Of a DNA stretch of 64,000 bases, positions 55,441-64,000 are shown one piece after another; position 1 is the stretch's first letter; each line of letters begins with the position of its first letter. Location: the NCBI RefSeq assembly GCF_017348835.2, contig NZ_CP071375.1; one strand, given 5' to 3'. Source of the DNA: Escherichia coli. GTDB lineage: Bacteria > Pseudomonadota > Gammaproteobacteria > Enterobacterales > Enterobacteriaceae. The notes under the pieces are model-generated. The model ran no database searches and had not been told where the DNA came from. It worked only from the letters and a program-made list of their open reading frames with translations. Position numbers and translations under genes: made by a program.

Positions 55441-56172
55441 TTATATCAGCCAAATGAAACTTGCCATACGACCGGTGGTCTTGTCGCGACGATAAGAGAA
55501 GAAAGTCTCATTTTCCGTATATGTACAACGGTCGCCGCCGAAAATTTGTTCAACACCAACGCTCGCCAGACGCTGCCGGGCAAGCTGATAAATGTCCGCC
55601 AGATACTTATCACCATGCTGAATGAAAGCTGTACTCGCTTCGGCGTCTACTGCCATAAACGCCTCGCGAACCTCCGCCCCCACTTCAAACGCGCGTGGAC
55701 CAATTGCCGGCCCTAACCAGGCGAGAATATTTTCTGGATTATCAGCAAAACAGGAAACTGTCTCTTCCAGCACGCCTGCGCACAGTCCACGCCAGCCAGC
55801 ATGAGCGGCGGCGACTTCCGTTCCCGCTCGATTGCAAAACAGCACAGGGAGGCAGTCGGCAGTCATCACTGCGCAAACCGTGCCGGGCGTATTGCTATAA
55901 GAGGCATCTGCTCGTTTTGAGGCATAAGGTTCGCCAGTAAGCTTAAGCACATCTTTGCCGTGTACCTGCTCAAGCCAGACCGGTTTAGAAGGCAAATTGC
56001 CCGCAGCAAAAAGTCGCTTGCGATTCTCCTCAACGTGATCCGGGTTATCGCCACAATGGGCACCGAGGTTGAGCGAGTCATACGGGGGCAAGCTCACGCC
56101 GCCGATACGAGTAGAGCTACAGGCCGCAACACCTTTTGGCAGCGGCCACTGCGGAACAATCAGCTTACTCAT
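55441..56172 (-). CDS. yfiH: Purine nucleoside phosphorylase/laccase-domain protein YfiH (PgeF)
   Basis: 243 aa, MSKLIVPQWPLPKGVAACSSTR... Confidence 0.9.
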   Translation of the reverse strand: MSKLIVPQWPLPKGVAACSSTRIGGVSLPPYDSLNLGAHCGDNPDHVEENRKRLFAAGNLPSKPVWLEQVHGKDVLKLTGEPYASKRADASYSNTPGTVCAVMTADCLPVLFCNRAGTEVAAAHAGWRGLCAGVLEETVSCFADNPENILAWLGPAIGPRAFEVGAEVREAFMAVDAEASTAFIQHGDKYLADIYQLARQRLASVGVEQIFGGDRCTYTENETFFSYRRDKTTGRMASFIWLI

Positions 56173-57149
56173 AACCAGTCCACTTCATCTTTATGCTCTT
56201 CGAAATCGGCGCGCATCACCTCAATCAGCTCCACCATATCTTGTGGAATAGGCGCATGCCATTCCATTTCGATACCGGAGATCGGGTGATAAAGACGCAG
56301 CATGGTTGCATGAAGCGCCTGGCGGTCAAATTTACGCAGCGTGGAGATAAACGCTTCCGAAGCACCTTTTGGCGGACGCGGACGGCCACCATAAACCGGA
56401 TCGCCCACCAGCGGATGAGTGATATGGGCCATATGCACGCGGATCTGGTGCGTACGTCCAGTTTCCAGACGCAACCGCAGACGCGTGTGCACACGGAAGT
56501 GTTCCATGATGCGATAGTGAGTCACCGCCGGTTTGCCCATCGGATGCACCGCCATGTGAGTACGTTTGGTCGGGTGGCGGCTGATTGGTTCATCTACTGT
56601 ACCGCCAGCGGTCATATGACCAATTGCCACCGCTTCATACTCACGAGTAATTTCACGCCTTTGCAAAGATTCGACTAAACGCGTCTGAGCCGGAACGGTT
56701 TTTGCCACAACCATCAGGCCAGTGGTGTCTTTATCCAGACGATGGACGATGCCCGCACGTGGTACATCGGCAATGGGCGGATAGTAATGAAGCAACGCAT
56801 TCAGTACCGTGCCATCCGGGTTACCCGCGCCAGGATGTACCACCAGATCGCGCGGTTTATTAATGACGATGATATATTCATCTTCATAGACGATATCCAG
56901 CGGGATATCCTGCGGTTCAAAACGCGCTTCTTCTTCAATCTCAGCATTGATGGCAACCTGCTCGCCACCCAATACTTTTTCTTTCGGCTTATCACAAACT
57001 TTGCCGTTTACCAGCACGCGCTGGTCGAGGATCCATTCTTTTATTCGCGAACGTGAATAATCCGGGAACATTTCGGCCAAAGCCTGATCTAAGCGTTGTC
57101 CGAGTTGGTTTTCGGACACCGTTGCAGTGAGCTGTACTCGTTGTGCCAT
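56169..57149 (-). CDS. rluD: 23S rRNA pseudouridine synthase D
   Basis: S4 domain plus RluA-family catalytic motif HRLDKDTTG; 326 aa. Confidence 0.95.
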   Translation of the reverse strand: MAQRVQLTATVSENQLGQRLDQALAEMFPDYSRSRIKEWILDQRVLVNGKVCDKPKEKVLGGEQVAINAEIEEEARFEPQDIPLDIVYEDEYIIVINKPRDLVVHPGAGNPDGTVLNALLHYYPPIADVPRAGIVHRLDKDTTGLMVVAKTVPAQTRLVESLQRREITREYEAVAIGHMTAGGTVDEPISRHPTKRTHMAVHPMGKPAVTHYRIMEHFRVHTRLRLRLETGRTHQIRVHMAHITHPLVGDPVYGGRPRPPKGASEAFISTLRKFDRQALHATMLRLYHPISGIEMEWHAPIPQDMVELIEVMRADFEEHKDEVDWL

Positions 57150-57283
57150 ATATACTGCTTCTTCGTTTATCGTTGGGGTTTTACGGCTTTGCCGTTTAAT
57201 ATAGTGTGCTATTGTAGCTGGTCTTAACCGGGAGCAGGAACAGAGAATCTCCCGTATTACATTTTGAGGAAAGTCAAAACGTC

Positions 57284-58021
57284 ATGACGCGCATGAAATA
57301 TCTGGTGGCAGCCGCCACACTAAGCCTGTTTTTGGCGGGTTGCTCGGGGTCAAAGGAAGAAGTACCTGATAATCCGCCAAATGAAATTTACGCGACTGCA
57401 CAACAAAAGCTGCAGGACGGTAACTGGAGACAGGCAATAACGCAACTGGAAGCGTTAGATAATCGCTATCCGTTTGGTCCGTATTCGCAGCAGGTGCAGC
57501 TGGATCTCATCTACGCCTACTATAAAAACGCCGATTTGCCGTTAGCGCAGGCTGCCATCGATCGTTTTATTCGCCTAAACCCGACCCATCCGAATATCGA
57601 TTATGTCATGTACATGCGTGGCCTGACCAATATGGCGCTGGATGACAGTGCGCTGCAAGGGTTCTTTGGCGTTGACCGTAGCGATCGCGATCCTCAACAT
57701 GCACGAGCTGCGTTTAGTGACTTTTCCAAACTGGTGCGCGGCTATCCAAACAGTCAGTACACCACCGATGCCACCAAACGTCTGGTATTCCTGAAAGATC
57801 GTCTGGCGAAATATGAATACTCCGTGGCCGAGTACTATACAGAACGTGGCGCATGGGTTGCCGTCGTTAACCGCGTAGAAGGCATGTTGCGCGACTACCC
57901 GGATACCCAGGCTACGCGTGATGCGCTGCCGCTGATGGAAAATGCATACCGTCAGATGCAGATGAATGCGCAAGCTGAAAAAGTAGCGAAAATCATCGCC
58001 GCAAACAGCAGCAATACATAA
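57284..58021 (+). CDS. bamD: Outer membrane assembly lipoprotein BamD
   Basis: [22 protein letters not shown] lipobox plus TPR-like repeats; 245 aa. Confidence 0.95.
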
Positions 58022-58058
58022 CAGAAACCTGAAACACAAAACGGCAGCCCTTGAGCTG

Positions 58059-59484
58059 TAATGCCAGTCAGTTAAGCAACTGACTGGCTCTTTTTCGGGG
58101 CTGTGGGGTATTTCCAGGGCCTCTCCTTTACCACTCTCGGGAAGGCCCTTTCCCTTCTTGTCGGTAATTTCACAAGTTGTCCCATACTTGCAAGATCGCG
58201 CATCAGCTCCGGTATACGTCCCGGTGAAGCGCCCTGCAATGTCATCAGCATTCTCATCACCATTCCGCATGATTCTGAGAAGCTCAGTTGATTTGGCCAG
58301 TAACCTTTCAGATGTTCCGCCATTTTAATCATCTGATATCTCACCAGATTATAAGCCAGTAAGACACCCCACAGCTCTTGCTCCACAAGCTCAGGCTTTT
58401 TACTTCTCAGCGTCAGCCTGCTCAGTTGCATCGTCTGTTTTATCTCCCTGTATCCCAGTTCGATTTCCCAGCGATGACTGTACAGATCCGCCATTTCTCC
58501 TCCGGGGAAGCGCATGGCGTCCGTCATCGACGTCAGCAGATGGCAGACTTTTCCTTTGCGCGTCACGGTCAGCAGGCGGGCTGTCACCTCATTTCCCAGT
58601 CCCGGCCACTTTTTTCGTGCCTGCGGGCTGGTTTTCAGCTTCACCAGATGATCGCCTTTACCCAGTTTTCTGATCTCTTCATATTGCGCTCCCTTTCTGA
58701 GAGGGATCATCCAGTGGCGGTGTTCTCCCGCCAGGCTCCAGGCATTTAACAATCCCAGTGAGTAATAACCTTTATCCATTAACGTCAGAGTGTTATCGCC
58801 GGTTTGTTCTATAAGTTGCTCAGCAAGCTCATTTTCGCTGTTCTTCATCGTGCCGAAGGCTGCAGCCGTCAGCAGATGGCTGGTCAGTTCCATCTGGCAG
58901 ACCATTTTGACCTGCGGGTAGAGCGCCGGGGTCCCGGCATGTGTCTGGCGAGGGAAGGCTGCATCGTTCTCTGGTGTATCCGGTGTGCGCCAGAACACAC
59001 CATCGATGGCCAGCAGGGTCAGGCCGCACCAGTGCGGATGCGGCGTGGCGTTATGCCAGAGCTGCGCTGTTTTCGTGAACACGCGGCGGACAGCCTCACT
59101 TCCCAGGCGCTGGCGGGCCTGAATAACAGCACTGGGGGCAACGAAGGTGCGATTGCCCGGCAGCATGATGTCCAGGCGATTCACAATCTGGTGAAGAGGT
59201 TCTTTACGCTCAAGCGCCATGCCAACAATACACCAGACCATCATTTCGAGGGGAAGACGGCGCTTGCGTAGCGTTACAGTACCTGATTCGGCAAGGCAAC
59301 GAGAGATGAGTTCGGGGTCGAGGTAATCTCCCAGAGAAGTCAGTGGGTTACGCAGAGAATCGTAACGGGATACCAGATCAAGAGCCTGTCCAATGTGCAT
59401 AAAAAAATCCGGAAACGAGTGAGCGTTTCCGGATTCTTACACAGCCACTGGATCGGTCAACTGATCCTTAACTGATCGGCATTA
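58059..59484 (-). mobile_element. IS4 insertion sequence, complete (1426 bp)
   Basis: Inverted termini TAATGCC...GGCATTA, single 442-aa transposase ORF, flanked by direct repeats CAGCCCTTGAGCTG at 58045-58058 and 59485-59498. Confidence 0.92.
58072..59400 (-). CDS. insG: IS4 transposase (DDE family)
   Basis: 442 aa, [50 protein letters not shown]..., recalled as IS4 InsG. Confidence 0.92.
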
Positions 59485-59677
59485 CAGCCCTTGAGCTGCC
59501 GTTTTTTTATTCTGTCAGTTGTGAAACTGAAGCGATTTAGTCGCTATCGATCTCATCAAATATGGCTCGCTTTGAGATATTCCTCAAGTAAAAAAACACC
59601 TCTTCCTGCGATTTCTCACAAAAAAGATTCGTTGACAAAAAGTGACAAAATTATGAGATTTCCATCACACATTTTGA

Positions 59678-60073
<396 letters not shown>

Positions 60074-60096
60074 TCCTTTATATTGAGTGTATCGCC

Positions 60097-60120
60097 AACG
60101 CGCCTTCGGGCGCGTTTTTT
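60097..60120 (+). terminator. raiA rho-independent terminator
   Basis: AACGCGCC-TTCG-GGCGCGTT hairpin followed by TTTTTT. Confidence 0.75.
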
Positions 60121-60121
60121 G

Positions 60122-60160
60122 TTGACAGCGTGAAAACAGTACGGGTACTGTACTAAAGTC
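60122..60160 (+). promoter_or_regulatory. pheL-pheA promoter
   Basis: TTGACA -35 at 60122-60127 and an A/T-rich -10 region upstream of pheL. Confidence 0.6.
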
Positions 60161-60176
60161 ACTTAAGGAAACAAAC

Positions 60177-60224
60177 ATGAAACACATACCGTTTTTCTTC
60201 GCATTCTTTTTTACCTTCCCCTGA
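60177..60224 (+). CDS. pheL: pheA leader peptide (15 aa, Phe-rich)
   Basis: ATG AAA CAC ATA CCG TTT TTC TTC GCA TTC TTT TTT ACC TTC CCC TGA = [15 protein letters not shown]. Confidence 0.93.
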
Positions 60225-60271
60225 ATGGGAGGCGTTTCGTCGTGTGAAACAGAATGCGAAGACGAACAATA

Positions 60272-60299
60272 AGGCCTCCCAAATCGGGGGGCCTTTTTT
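60272..60299 (+). terminator. pheA attenuator terminator
   Basis: GGCCTCCC-AAATC-GGGGGGCC hairpin followed by TTTTTT between pheL and pheA. Confidence 0.85.
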
Positions 60300-60322
60300 A
60301 TTGATAACAAAAAGGCAACACT

Positions 60323-61483
60323 ATGACATCGGAAAACCCATTACTGGCGCTGCGAGAGAAAATCAGCGCGCTGGATGAAAAATTATTAGCATTACTCGCA
60401 GAGCGGCGCGAACTGGCCGTCGAGGTGGGAAAAGCCAAACTGCTCTCGCATCGCCCGGTACGTGATATTGATCGTGAACGCGATTTACTGGAAAGATTAA
60501 TTACGCTCGGTAAAGCGCACCATCTGGACGCCCATTACATTACTCGCCTGTTCCAGCTCATCATTGAAGATTCCGTATTAACTCAGCAGGCTTTGCTCCA
60601 ACAACATCTCAATAAAATTAATCCGCACTCAGCACGCATCGCTTTTCTCGGCCCCAAAGGTTCTTATTCCCATCTTGCGGCGCGCCAGTATGCTGCCCGT
60701 CACTTTGAGCAATTCATTGAAAGTGGCTGCGCCAAATTTGCCGATATTTTTAATCAGGTGGAAACCGGCCAGGCCGACTATGCCGTCGTACCGATTGAAA
60801 ATACCAGCTCCGGTGCCATAAATGACGTTTACGATCTGCTGCAACATACCAGCTTGTCGATTGTTGGCGAGATGACGTTAACTATCGACCATTGTTTGTT
60901 AGTCTCCGGCACGACTGATTTATCCACCATCAATACGGTCTACAGCCATCCGCAGCCATTCCAGCAATGCAGCAAATTCCTTAATCGTTATCCGCACTGG
61001 AAGATTGAATATACCGAAAGTACGTCTGCGGCAATGGAAAAGGTTGCACAGGCAAAATCACCGCATGTTGCTGCGTTGGGAAGCGAAGCTGGCGGCACTT
61101 TGTACGGTTTGCAGGTACTGGAGCGGATTGAAGCGAATCAGCGACAAAACTTCACCCGATTTGTGGTGTTGGCGCGTAAAGCCATTAACGTGTCTGATCA
61201 AGTTCCGGCGAAAACGACGTTGTTAATGGCGACCGGGCAACAAGCCGGTGCGCTGGTTGAAGCGTTGCTGGTACTGCGCAACCACAATCTGATTATGACC
61301 CGTCTGGAATCACGCCCGATTCACGGTAATCCATGGGAAGAGATGTTTTATCTGGATATTCAGGCCAATCTTGAATCAGCGGAAATGCAAAAAGCATTGA
61401 AAGAGTTAGGGGAAATCACCCGTTCAATGAAGGTATTGGGCTGTTACCCAAGTGAGAACGTAGTGCCTGTTGATCCAACCTGA
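60323..61483 (+). CDS. pheA: Bifunctional chorismate mutase / prephenate dehydratase
   Basis: 386 aa, [39 protein letters not shown]... Confidence 0.97.
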
Positions 61484-61490
61484 TGAAAAG

Positions 61491-61518
61491 GTGCCGGATG
61501 ATGTGAATCATCCGGCAC
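61491..61518. terminator. Bidirectional terminator between convergent pheA and tyrA
   Basis: GTGCCGGATGAT-GTGAA-TCATCCGGCAC hairpin. Confidence 0.7.
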
Positions 61519-61525
61519 TGGATTA

Positions 61526-62647
61526 TTACTGGCGATTGTCATTCGCCTGACGCAATAACACGCGGCTTTCACTCTGAAAACGCTGTGCGTAATCGCCGAA
61601 CCAGTGCTCCACCTTGCGGAAACTGTCAATAAACGCCTGCTTATCGCCCTGCTCCAGCAACTCAATCGCCTCGCCGAAACGCTTATAGTAACGTTTGATT
61701 AACGCCAGATTACGCTCTGACGACATAATAATGTCGGCATAAAGCTGCGGATCCTGAGCAAACAGTCGCCCGACCATCGCCAGCTCAAGGCGGTAAATCG
61801 GCGAAGAGAGCGCCAGAAGTTGCTCAAGCTGAACATTTTCTTCTGCCAGGTGCAGCCCGTAAGCAAAAGTAGCAAAGTGGCGCAGTGCCTGAATAAACGC
61901 CATATTCTGATCGTGCTCGACGGCGCTAATACGATGCAACCGAGCGCCCCAGACCTGAATTTGCTCCAGAAACCATTGGTATGCTTCCGGTTTACGTCCA
62001 TCACACCAGACCACAACTTGCTTTGCCAGGCTACCGCTATCCGGACCAAACATCGGGTGTAACCCCAGCACCGGGCCATCATGCGCCGCCAGCATGGCCT
62101 GTAACGGCCCATTTTTCACTGATGCCAGATCGACCAGAATACAGTCTTGCGGTAAACGCGGTAATTTGCCGATAACTTGTTCTGTAACATGAATCGGCAC
62201 GCTGACAATCACCATACCGGCATCGGCAACAATCTCAGCCGCGCGATCCCAGTCATGTTGTTCAAGGATCCGCACCTGATAGCCAGAGAGCGTCAGCATC
62301 TTCTCGAACAAGCGCCCCATCTGTCCACCGCCACCAACAATGACTACCGGACGTAGTGAAGGACAAAGCGTTTTAAACCCTTTGTCGTTTTCACTGGAGT
62401 AGGACTCACGCATTACCCGACGCAGAACATCTTCAATCAGATCTGGCGGCACGCCGAGTGCTTCCGCCTCTGCACGCCGCGAGGCCAACATAGATGCCTC
62501 ACGCTCCGGAACATAAATAGGCAGTCCAAAGCGGCTTTTTACTTCGCCCACTTCGGCAACCAGTTCCAGACGCTTCGCTAATAAATTCAGCAGCTCTTTA
62601 TCGACTTCATCAATTTGATCGCGTAATGCGGTCAATTCAGCAACCAT
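61526..62647 (-). CDS. tyrA: Bifunctional chorismate mutase / prephenate dehydrogenase
   Basis: 373 aa, [37 protein letters not shown]...; NAD-binding IVGGGGQMG. Confidence 0.97.
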
Positions 62648-62657
62648 AATAAACCTC

Positions 62658-63728
62658 TTAAGCCACGCGCGCCGTCAGTTGCCCTTTGAGATCATGATGG
62701 ATCTCACGCAGCAAGGCATCAGTCATTTCCCAGCTAATGCAGGCATCGGTTACGGATACACCGTATTTCATTTCACTGCGCGGTTGCTCGGAAGACTGAT
62801 TGCCCTCGTGGATATTACTTTCGATCATCAGACCAATAATTGAGCGATTGCCATCTTTGATTTGAGCAACCACGGATTCTGCCACCGCAGGCTGACGGCG
62901 ATAATCTTTATTGGAATTACCGTGGCTGCAATCTACCATCAGAGACGGGCGCAGTCCCGCCTGTTCCATCTCTTTTTCACATTGCGCAACATCCGCAGGG
63001 CTATAGTTCGGCGCTTTACCACCGCGCAGGATCACATGCCCGTCCGGATTCCCCTGAGTTTGTAGCAACGCAACCTGCCCTGCCTGGTTAATGCCAACAA
63101 AACGGTGCGGCTGGGCGGCGGCGCGCATAGCGTTAATTGCCGTTGCCAGACTGCCATCGGTGCCGTTTTTAAAACCAACCGGCATGGAAAGCCCGGAGGC
63201 CATTTCACGGTGAGTTTGCGATTCCGTTGTACGAGCACCAATTGCTGACCAGCTAAACAGATCGCCCAGGTATTGCGGGCTATTCGGATCTAACGCTTCC
63301 GTCGCCAGTGGCAGTCCCATATTCACCAGCTCAAGCAGCAATTTACGCGCGATCTGCAGCCCGGCTTCTACATCAAAAGAGCCATCCATATGGGGATCGT
63401 TAATTAACCCTTTCCAGCCGACAGTGGTACGGGGTTTTTCAAAATAGACGCGCATTACCAGATAGAGGCTATCGCTGACCTCTGCGGCAAGGGCTTTAAA
63501 TCGACGAGCATATTCCAGAGCAGTTTCCGGATCATGAATGGAACAAGGACCACATACTACCAGCAGACGAGGATCGCGCCCGGCGATAATATCTGAAATG
63601 GTTTTACGCGAGTCAGCAATCTGGGCTTCTTGTTGCAGGCTTAATGGAAAAGCGGCCTTCAGTTGTGCCGGAGTCATTAAAACCTGTTCGTCGGTAATAT
63701 GTACGTTATTCAGCGCGTCTTTTTGCAT
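62658..63728 (-). CDS. aroF: DAHP synthase, Tyr-sensitive
   Basis: [20 protein letters not shown]...; start trimmed from 63797. Confidence 0.96.
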
Positions 63729-63822
63729 GATGGCGATCCTGTTTATGCTCGTTTGCGATAGTTGATCCTCAGCGAGGATGACGTAACGATAACACATAAA
63801 GTAAAGTTTTCAATCCATATTT

Positions 63823-63892
63823 CGTACATTTTTCTTTACATAAGCAATTTATTCGCGCTTTCAACCCTTGCCCCTGTATAGATAAATTTACA
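63823..63892 (-). promoter_or_regulatory. TyrR boxes in aroF control region
   Basis: Reverse-strand TGTAAA-N6-TGTACG at 63823-63840 and TGTATA-N6-TTTACA at 63875-63892. Confidence 0.65.
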
Positions 63893-63938
63893 CCACCTTT
63901 GAAAACAATCCGCTATGCTTTGAAAAAGGAGAAAGAAA

Positions 63939-64000
63939 TGATGAAAAAGTTTATCGCCCCCTTGTTGGCTTTACTGGTTAGCGGATGCCAGATTGATCCT
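63939..64000 (+). CDS. yfiL: Lipoprotein YfiL, N-terminal fragment (continues past window end)
   Basis: MMKKFIAPLLALLVSGCQIDP lipobox; AGGAGA SD upstream. Confidence 0.7.

Follow-up and report, generated by a model that had tools for sequence, protein, structure and literature searches.

IS4 inserted in the bamD terminator of Escherichia coli: a recurrent target site, with probably little effect on bamD and raiA

An insertion sequence that lands inside a transcription terminator raises the question of whether transcripts of the upstream gene still stop near their old end, whether the downstream gene is affected, and why the element has settled there. This is the situation found between bamD and raiA in the window analysed in this work, i.e., a stretch of 64,000 nucleotides of E. 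coli DNA (contig NZ_CP071375.1), where the first-pass annotation had described a complete IS4 of 1426 bp encoding an intact transposase of 442 aa. Coordinates, inverted repeats, and Pfam matches all agree with that description. The locus is organized as follows:

57284-58021, plus strand: bamD coding sequence, 245 aa (Pfam YfiO, 5.8e-88), annotated as bamD in strain PE164
58045-58058, no strand: left copy of the target-site duplication, 14 bp, CAGCCCTTGAGCTG
58059-59484, minus strand: IS4, with its IRR end (transposase stop) toward bamD and its IRL end (transposase start) toward raiA
58059-58076, no strand: IRR, 18-bp terminal inverted repeat, matching IRL at 16 of 18 positions
58072-59400, minus strand: IS4 transposase (InsG-type), a single uninterrupted and intact ORF of 442 aa
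59467-59484, no strand: IRL, 18-bp terminal inverted repeat
59485-59498, no strand: right copy of the target-site duplication, 14 bp, CAGCCCTTGAGCTG
59732-60073, plus strand: raiA coding sequence, 113 aa (Pfam Ribosomal_S30AE)

The element measures exactly 1426 bp and is delimited by TAATGCC...GGCATTA. Its ends, TAATGCCAGTCAGTTA and TAATGCCGATCAGTTA, carry the signature -AATR--------WTW that defines the ends of the IS4 subgroup (Table 1 of PMC2266710). The transposase, whose gene is convergent with bamD, matches PF13006 (Nterm_IS4, 6.3e-33) and PF01609 (DDE_Tnp_1, 1.4e-31), and differs from the K-12 IS4 transposase by four amino acids; at the nucleotide level, 1411 of the 1426 positions (98.9%) are identical to the IS4 of MG1655, with 15 substitutions and no indels. 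The region 40000-64000 of the window is 100% identical to the genome of E. coli PE164, a pig isolate (NZ_CP114128.1), in which the raiA-bamD interval already has the RefSeq annotation "IS4-like element IS4 family transposase". The element is IS4 itself, already annotated and located at a place that agrees with what is known of its target choice, and taken alone a known and RefSeq-annotated element at such a site would carry little weight. No second IS4 copy was found within the window, and about six IS4 places are present in the closest matching genome. The earlier suggestion that IS4 is active or was so recently is plausible, given that the site is polymorphic among close relatives and that the transposase is intact.

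A side observation concerns the annotated start of the transposase. At position 59417 of the window (IS4 coordinate 1359) there is a G where K-12 has an A, which converts the TTG of the K-12 transposase strand into TCG. This change would explain why the PGAP product is here a protein of 442 aa starting at ATG, whereas PGAP has a product of 448 aa that starts at TTG for IS4 copies of K-12, IAI39, and various further genomes.

The direct repeat CAGCCCTTGAGCTG is perfect and cannot be extended on either side. When the IS and one copy of the repeat are deleted, a bamD-raiA spacer of 270 bp is obtained, equal in length to that of MG1655 and two SNPs apart from it, which bears out the empty K-12 site of about 270 bp that had been postulated. 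A single-piece match to the reconstructed empty site, taken as 616 bp, exists in 5016 of the 5426 complete E. coli genomes; in five of these the identity is 100%. The rejoined flanks restore the hairpin ACGGCAGC-CCTTGA-GCTGCCGT followed by T7, the sequence reading AAAACGGCAGC-CCTTGA-GCTGCCGTTTTTTT. It begins 20 nt past the bamD stop codon and consists of an 8-bp stem (6 G-C pairs), a 6-nt loop, and the T7 run, with a predicted energy of -14.0 kcal/mol for the hairpin alone and of -18 kcal/mol when the A/U extension is included (z = -4.4 versus shuffles). At the sequence level, the pre-insertion site is an intrinsic (Rho-independent) terminator, and the insertion point falls inside its stem-loop, as the first-pass annotation had proposed. 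What is left of this terminator on both sides of IS4 is the following:

58042-58059, plus strand: left remnant, in which the 5' arm is complete and is followed by the loop and 4 nt of the 3' arm (5-bp stem, -5.6 kcal/mol)
59477-59508, plus strand: right remnant, with the weak stem CGGCA/UGCCG plus GC (-5.7 kcal/mol)

The left remnant has no T-run, and the right one, with z = -0.5 in a 48-nt context, keeps the original T7 at 59502-59508. Thus, the earlier statement that neither flank has the full hairpin holds, and its description of the left side as the 5' arm and loop has to be completed with the four retained nucleotides of the 3' arm, owing to which the CAGC/GCTG mini-stem is present in both copies.

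With regard to length, the subgroup has been described with target duplications of 10-13 bp (PMC2266710). The 14-bp duplication found here is 1 bp longer, and duplications of 11-12 bp were seen at other IS4 sites; the 14 bp widen the range of the subgroup and are no argument against the assignment of the element to IS4.

The element brings structures of its own, two of them hairpins, that bear on the fate of the transcripts:

58063-58096, plus strand: terminator-like hairpin at the IRR end, GCCAGTCAGTT-AAGC-AACTGACTGGC (11-bp stem, 4-nt loop, -17.5 kcal/mol)
59401-59435, minus strand: IRL-proximal hairpin (stem of 12 bp, -17.2 kcal/mol), with U7 and, directly behind it, the transposase AUG
59433-59460, minus strand: promoter-like site in IRL, found by consensus match (TTGACC, 16-nt spacer, AAGAAT, upstream TG)

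The IRR-end hairpin (58063-58088) lies on the bamD strand only 4 nt inside the IS and is followed by TCTTTTTC (TCTTTTT). In the scan for terminator-like sites it came out among the top-listed ones, the stability of its stem equals or exceeds that of the lost stem, and it is identical in the IS4 of K-12, with the stop codon of the transposase, which is read from the other strand, located in its loop. The T-tract that follows, UCUUUUUC, is less favourable than the U7 of the lost terminator, a point that counts against replacement of the terminator. On balance, these predictions suggest that the 3' end of bamD has likely been moved about 45 nt downstream rather than extended by read-through. In the inverted orientation, which is found in other genomes as described below, the bamD transcripts would meet the hairpin-plus-U7 of the IRL end about 50-85 nt inside the IS, and this would be a stronger element than the IRR-end one.

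The IRL-proximal hairpin faces inward and is terminator-like on the transposase strand. K-12 differs in it by one loop-closing change from G-C to G-U at position 59417, the hairpin being kept in both versions. The predicted start of the promoter-like site falls within the 5' arm of this hairpin, and folding indicates that the native transposase leaders would have no fold (0 to -1 kcal/mol) and that transcripts reading in from outside would form the terminator. IS10 and IS50 are protected from outside activation, and by analogy we infer that the IRL hairpin may give IS4 a similar protection.

As for raiA, the sequence that precedes it was read directly:

59499-59731, plus strand: raiA upstream region, 233 bp, unaltered

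This region contains two TTGACA hexamers, at 59632-59637 and 59674-59679. A possible CRP site, TGAGA-N6-TCACA at 59654-59669, was also considered and discarded, its spacing to the TTGACA hexamers being unlike that of standard class I or class II sites. Within the IS, no promoter-like site was detected on the plus strand and, since the raiA ATG is still preceded by its 233 bp in unchanged form, an effect on raiA is unlikely. The displacement of raiA from bamD by 1.4 kb, noted earlier, is therefore real as a structure and has no evident consequence. Downstream of raiA there are two RNA elements, both untouched by the IS. The Phe leader (Rfam RF01859, 132 bits) and pheL are located at 60176-60301, upstream of pheA as expected, and the sRNA RaiZ is annotated in MG1655 over the 3' end of raiA (NC_000913.3, 2737381-2737542). 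In the Rfam scan of 56000-64000 the Phe leader was the single hit; neither the IS nor its junctions matched any RNA family.

The insertion is not restricted to the source strain. IS4 occupies the same position of the bamD terminator in 405 of the 5426 complete E. coli genomes (7.5%), a frequency that overstates the number of events because many of these genomes are surely clonal descendants. The orientation of the window accounts for 69 genomes by its left junction and for 69 by its right junction, and the opposite orientation, counted with a synthetic junction in which IS4 is inverted at the same base, for 336. Together, the empty (5016) and occupied (405) sites cover all but a handful of the genomes. 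About five or six distinct configurations could be documented from the sampled loci that were read. A 14-bp duplication was found in S43, ECNB21-M121, and an O121 strain, and VR50 combines the inverted orientation with a duplication of 12 bp. In IAI39 and AR_0013 the duplication measures 13 bp, CAGCCTTGAGCTG, and lies on a terminator allele that lacks one C of the loop; this allele is present in both copies of the repeat, so that it must be older than the insertion. In addition, IS4 is found in either orientation with each of the two alleles of a SNP in the nearby flank (ATTCTGTC versus ATTCTGTT). Outside E. coli, on contig L022 of Kosakonia oryziphila REICA_142, IS4 adjoins AAAAAAACGGCAGCCATTGGCTG, a flank located 245 nt upstream of the diverged raiA of this organism and beside pheA, which identifies it as the orthologous terminator. 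The three duplication lengths (12, 13, and 14 bp), the loop allele, and the Kosakonia insertion point to repeated independent hits, and we conclude that the bamD terminator is a recurrent, sequence-directed target of IS4 and not the scene of a one-off event.

The sequence that directs these hits can be read from the sites themselves. IS4 reportedly follows the rule AAA-N20-TTT, said to have been described by Mayaux and co-workers in 1984 for an insertion in the attenuator terminator of pheST. The bamD site can be written as AAAA-CGGCAGCCCTTGAGCTGCCG-TTTT with N = 20, the duplication being centred on the dyad inside this interval, and its layout, AAAA-CGG[CAGCCCTTGAGCTG]CCG-TTTTTTT, fits the rule. 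We have re-derived the motif from 17 independent non-E. coli flanks aligned at the IRL junction. AAA is present within -23 to -14 in 13 of the 17 flanks, versus a background of 12.7% in the same contigs (p = 3e-9), and there is a G at -1 in 15 of them. The flanks are C-rich at -14 to -12, and once the window and one contaminant contig are added, A reaches up to 16 of 19 sequences at -20 to -16. The non-E. coli flanks come from a scan of species-representative genomes for IS4 ends that yielded Kosakonia, Photorhabdus, and the contaminant contig, with one flank per site, and returned no E. coli loci; the Photorhabdus copy showed no clean second end or duplication and was left out as a complete site. 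Conserved arms in IS4 targets have also been described by De Palmenaer et al., 2008 (PMC2266710).

The comparison was extended to four further complete E. coli sites, and all of them fit the target rule or part of it. At the insG site of K-12, AAA-N20-TTT comes with a duplication of 12 bp. The adhE terminator site reads AAACGG[CCCCTTCTGGGG]CCGTTT, with CCGTTTTTTT as right flank. The gspK/glcA hairpin site reads CCCC[CAGCCTAGCTG]GGGGTTTT; its hairpin, CAGC-CTA-GCTG, is followed by TTTT. The fourth site, located downstream of cysC, also begins with CAGC and has no T-run. Two of these sites are also recurrent: the IS4 junction was found in 190 complete E. coli genomes at the adhE-tdk spacer and in 220 at the gspK-glcA region, with one orientation counted in both cases, and both contain hairpins with T-runs. 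IS4 was matched in 2686 of the 5426 genomes, at about 5310 chromosomal places that are not all full-length, and among the matches listed the records are annotated as IS4 or IS4-like transposase.

In the mechanism that we propose, IS4 selects an A-run, a GC-rich dyad of roughly 20 bp, and a T-run, the same layout that an intrinsic terminator has when an A-tract precedes it. Staggered cuts, symmetric about the dyad and placed 5' of CAGC on each strand, yielded the 14-bp duplication. The insertion splits the bamD terminator, the bamD transcripts are predicted to stop at the IRR hairpin of IS4, and raiA keeps all its own upstream DNA.

The length of the duplication in IS4 has long been known to vary, and the sites analysed here suggest a possible reason. 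In the CAGC...GCTG targets with both flanks read, a small sample, loops of 3, 5, and 6 nt go with duplications of 11, 13, and 14 bp, and whatever the loop length the junctions are always just outside the four-base arms. The single-flank Kosakonia junctions of contigs L022 and L009 likewise end directly after GCTG, and VR50, with its 12 bp, is the exception. The cut positions could therefore follow the half-site sequence or the hairpin structure, and not a fixed stagger. A bolder proposal, possible in our opinion and rather doubtful, is that IS4 reads the stem arms, either as independent half-sites or as an extruded hairpin or cruciform, and that together with its inward terminators it behaves as a 'terminator-swapping' element. 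If this were true, IS4 would be able to colonise terminators without de-insulating the neighbouring genes. In any case, the allelic series at the bamD site (12, 13, and 14 bp, in both orientations) constitutes a natural experiment on the choice of cuts by an IS4-type transposase.

Three other explanations have to be weighed against an ordinary insertion into a preferred target. The first-pass annotation had suggested that bamD transcripts may read into the IS, and a stronger version of this idea would be that bamD termination is lost, that transcripts run antisense to the transposase mRNA and maybe up to raiA, and that the expression of raiA or of the transposase is changed. It is true that the original hairpin of -14 kcal/mol is destroyed, that the left remnant (-5.6 kcal/mol) lacks a T-run, and that any read-through would be antisense, since the transposase gene is convergent with bamD. 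However, this suggestion had overlooked the 11-bp hairpin of -17.5 kcal/mol with TCTTTTT located on the bamD strand 4 nt inside the IS, and is weakened by it. Moreover, transcripts escaping from that hairpin would next meet the plus-strand version of the IRL hairpin (-18.3 kcal/mol), and the right remnant with its T7 is still ahead of raiA. We consider the loss of termination unlikely.

The other two explanations concern the recurrence. An occupancy of 7.5% of the complete genomes, in lineages that presumably span several phylogroups, might suggest that IS4 is adaptive here, e.g., by tuning the expression of raiA or bamD, and has been repeatedly fixed by selection. This is very improbable in view of the fact that both orientations occur, with different IS ends toward each gene, that the raiA upstream region is intact, and that the same motif is found at unrelated sites such as the adhE terminator (190 genomes) and gspK/glcA (220 genomes), as well as in flanks from a different genus. 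The alternative of a single ancestral insertion, spread by descent and recombination without any hotspot, would agree with the fact that most sampled junctions are identical and have the 14-bp duplication, but it would not account for the two orientations, for duplications of 12, 13, and 14 bp, for an insertion in a distinct pre-existing loop allele that appears on both copies of the repeat, or for the insertion at the orthologous Kosakonia site, and it hardly deserves credit. A one-off or selected event was thus rejected on account of the two orientations, the three duplication lengths, and the comparably occupied IS4 sites elsewhere.

In our opinion, it is highly probable that the locus reflects an ordinary transpositional insertion of IS4 into a preferred terminator target, with predicted terminators at the ends of the element and a near-neutral outcome. 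Because candidate replacement hairpins are present at the IS ends and the DNA upstream of raiA is intact, the insertion is probably close to neutral, as its persistence also suggests, and near-neutrality would in turn explain why the insertion persists and recurs. In practice, annotators should not take a split terminator as lost bamD termination. The bamD-raiA spacer is a recurrent landing pad of IS4 that can be used as a strain marker. The literature search on IS4 at bamD/raiA and on the IS4 target papers of the 1980s returned nothing directly on the site, and in the literature searched no mention was found of the bamD terminator as a recurrent site or of a 14-bp duplication. In Shigella sonnei reference strains, an inversion flanked by IS4 has been reported with raiA as the first listed gene (PMC12795559), which suggests that IS4 lies beside raiA in this species too and is used there as a substrate for recombination.

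Two observations on other assemblies arose from the scan of IS4 ends. Kosakonia oryziphila REICA_142 contains, on 16 contigs, at least 16 IS4 ends with a 30-mer identical to that of E. coli IS4; 12 of the 16 contigs stop about 90-350 nt into the IS, and in the other four the end lies within a longer contig. This indicates that IS4 has expanded in a plant-associated enterobacterium and that an almost identical element has recently spread by horizontal transfer. The second observation concerns a 265-bp contig of Methylobacterium mesophilicum NBRC 15688 (NZ_BPQU01000128.1), in which the flank ...GTTACAAACACCAGAACCAAGAT|TAATGCC corresponds exactly, in reverse complement, to the insG insertion site of E. 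coli K-12. Judging by this sequence, the contig almost certainly represents contaminating E. coli K-12 DNA in the assembly of Methylobacterium.

Among the known systems, the closest is the IS4 of K-12 itself (insG; IS4 family, IS4 subgroup in ISfinder), which has the same 1426 bp, the same 18-bp repeats starting with TAATGCC, the same end hairpins, and a 442-aa transposase with the Nterm_IS4 and DDE domains; it differs from the copy of the window in its chromosomal site and in its duplication, 12 bp versus 14 bp. The bamD target is likewise a terminator hairpin, as the pheST attenuator reportedly is in the case of Mayaux and co-workers. IS231A, a member of the IS4 family, reportedly targets a GGG-N5-CCC dyad with bent, AT-rich DNA on either side, a finding attributed to Hallet and co-workers in 1994, and IS10 has a symmetric hotspot consensus. 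The likeness to IS4 would lie in a short GC-rich dyad between A/T tracts and in symmetric staggered cuts about one helical turn apart, whereas the consensus sequences differ and the stagger of IS4 is more variable (11-14 bp seen here). Finally, some insertion sequences are known to target extragenic palindromes, such as IS1397 and ISKpn1, which insert in REP/BIME elements, and ISRm22, of the IS4 family (PMC1525189). Like them, IS4 prefers intergenic palindromes downstream of genes, a low-cost landing site, but its targets here are unique-copy terminators with A/T runs, in contrast to the repeated REP family used by IS1397 and ISKpn1.
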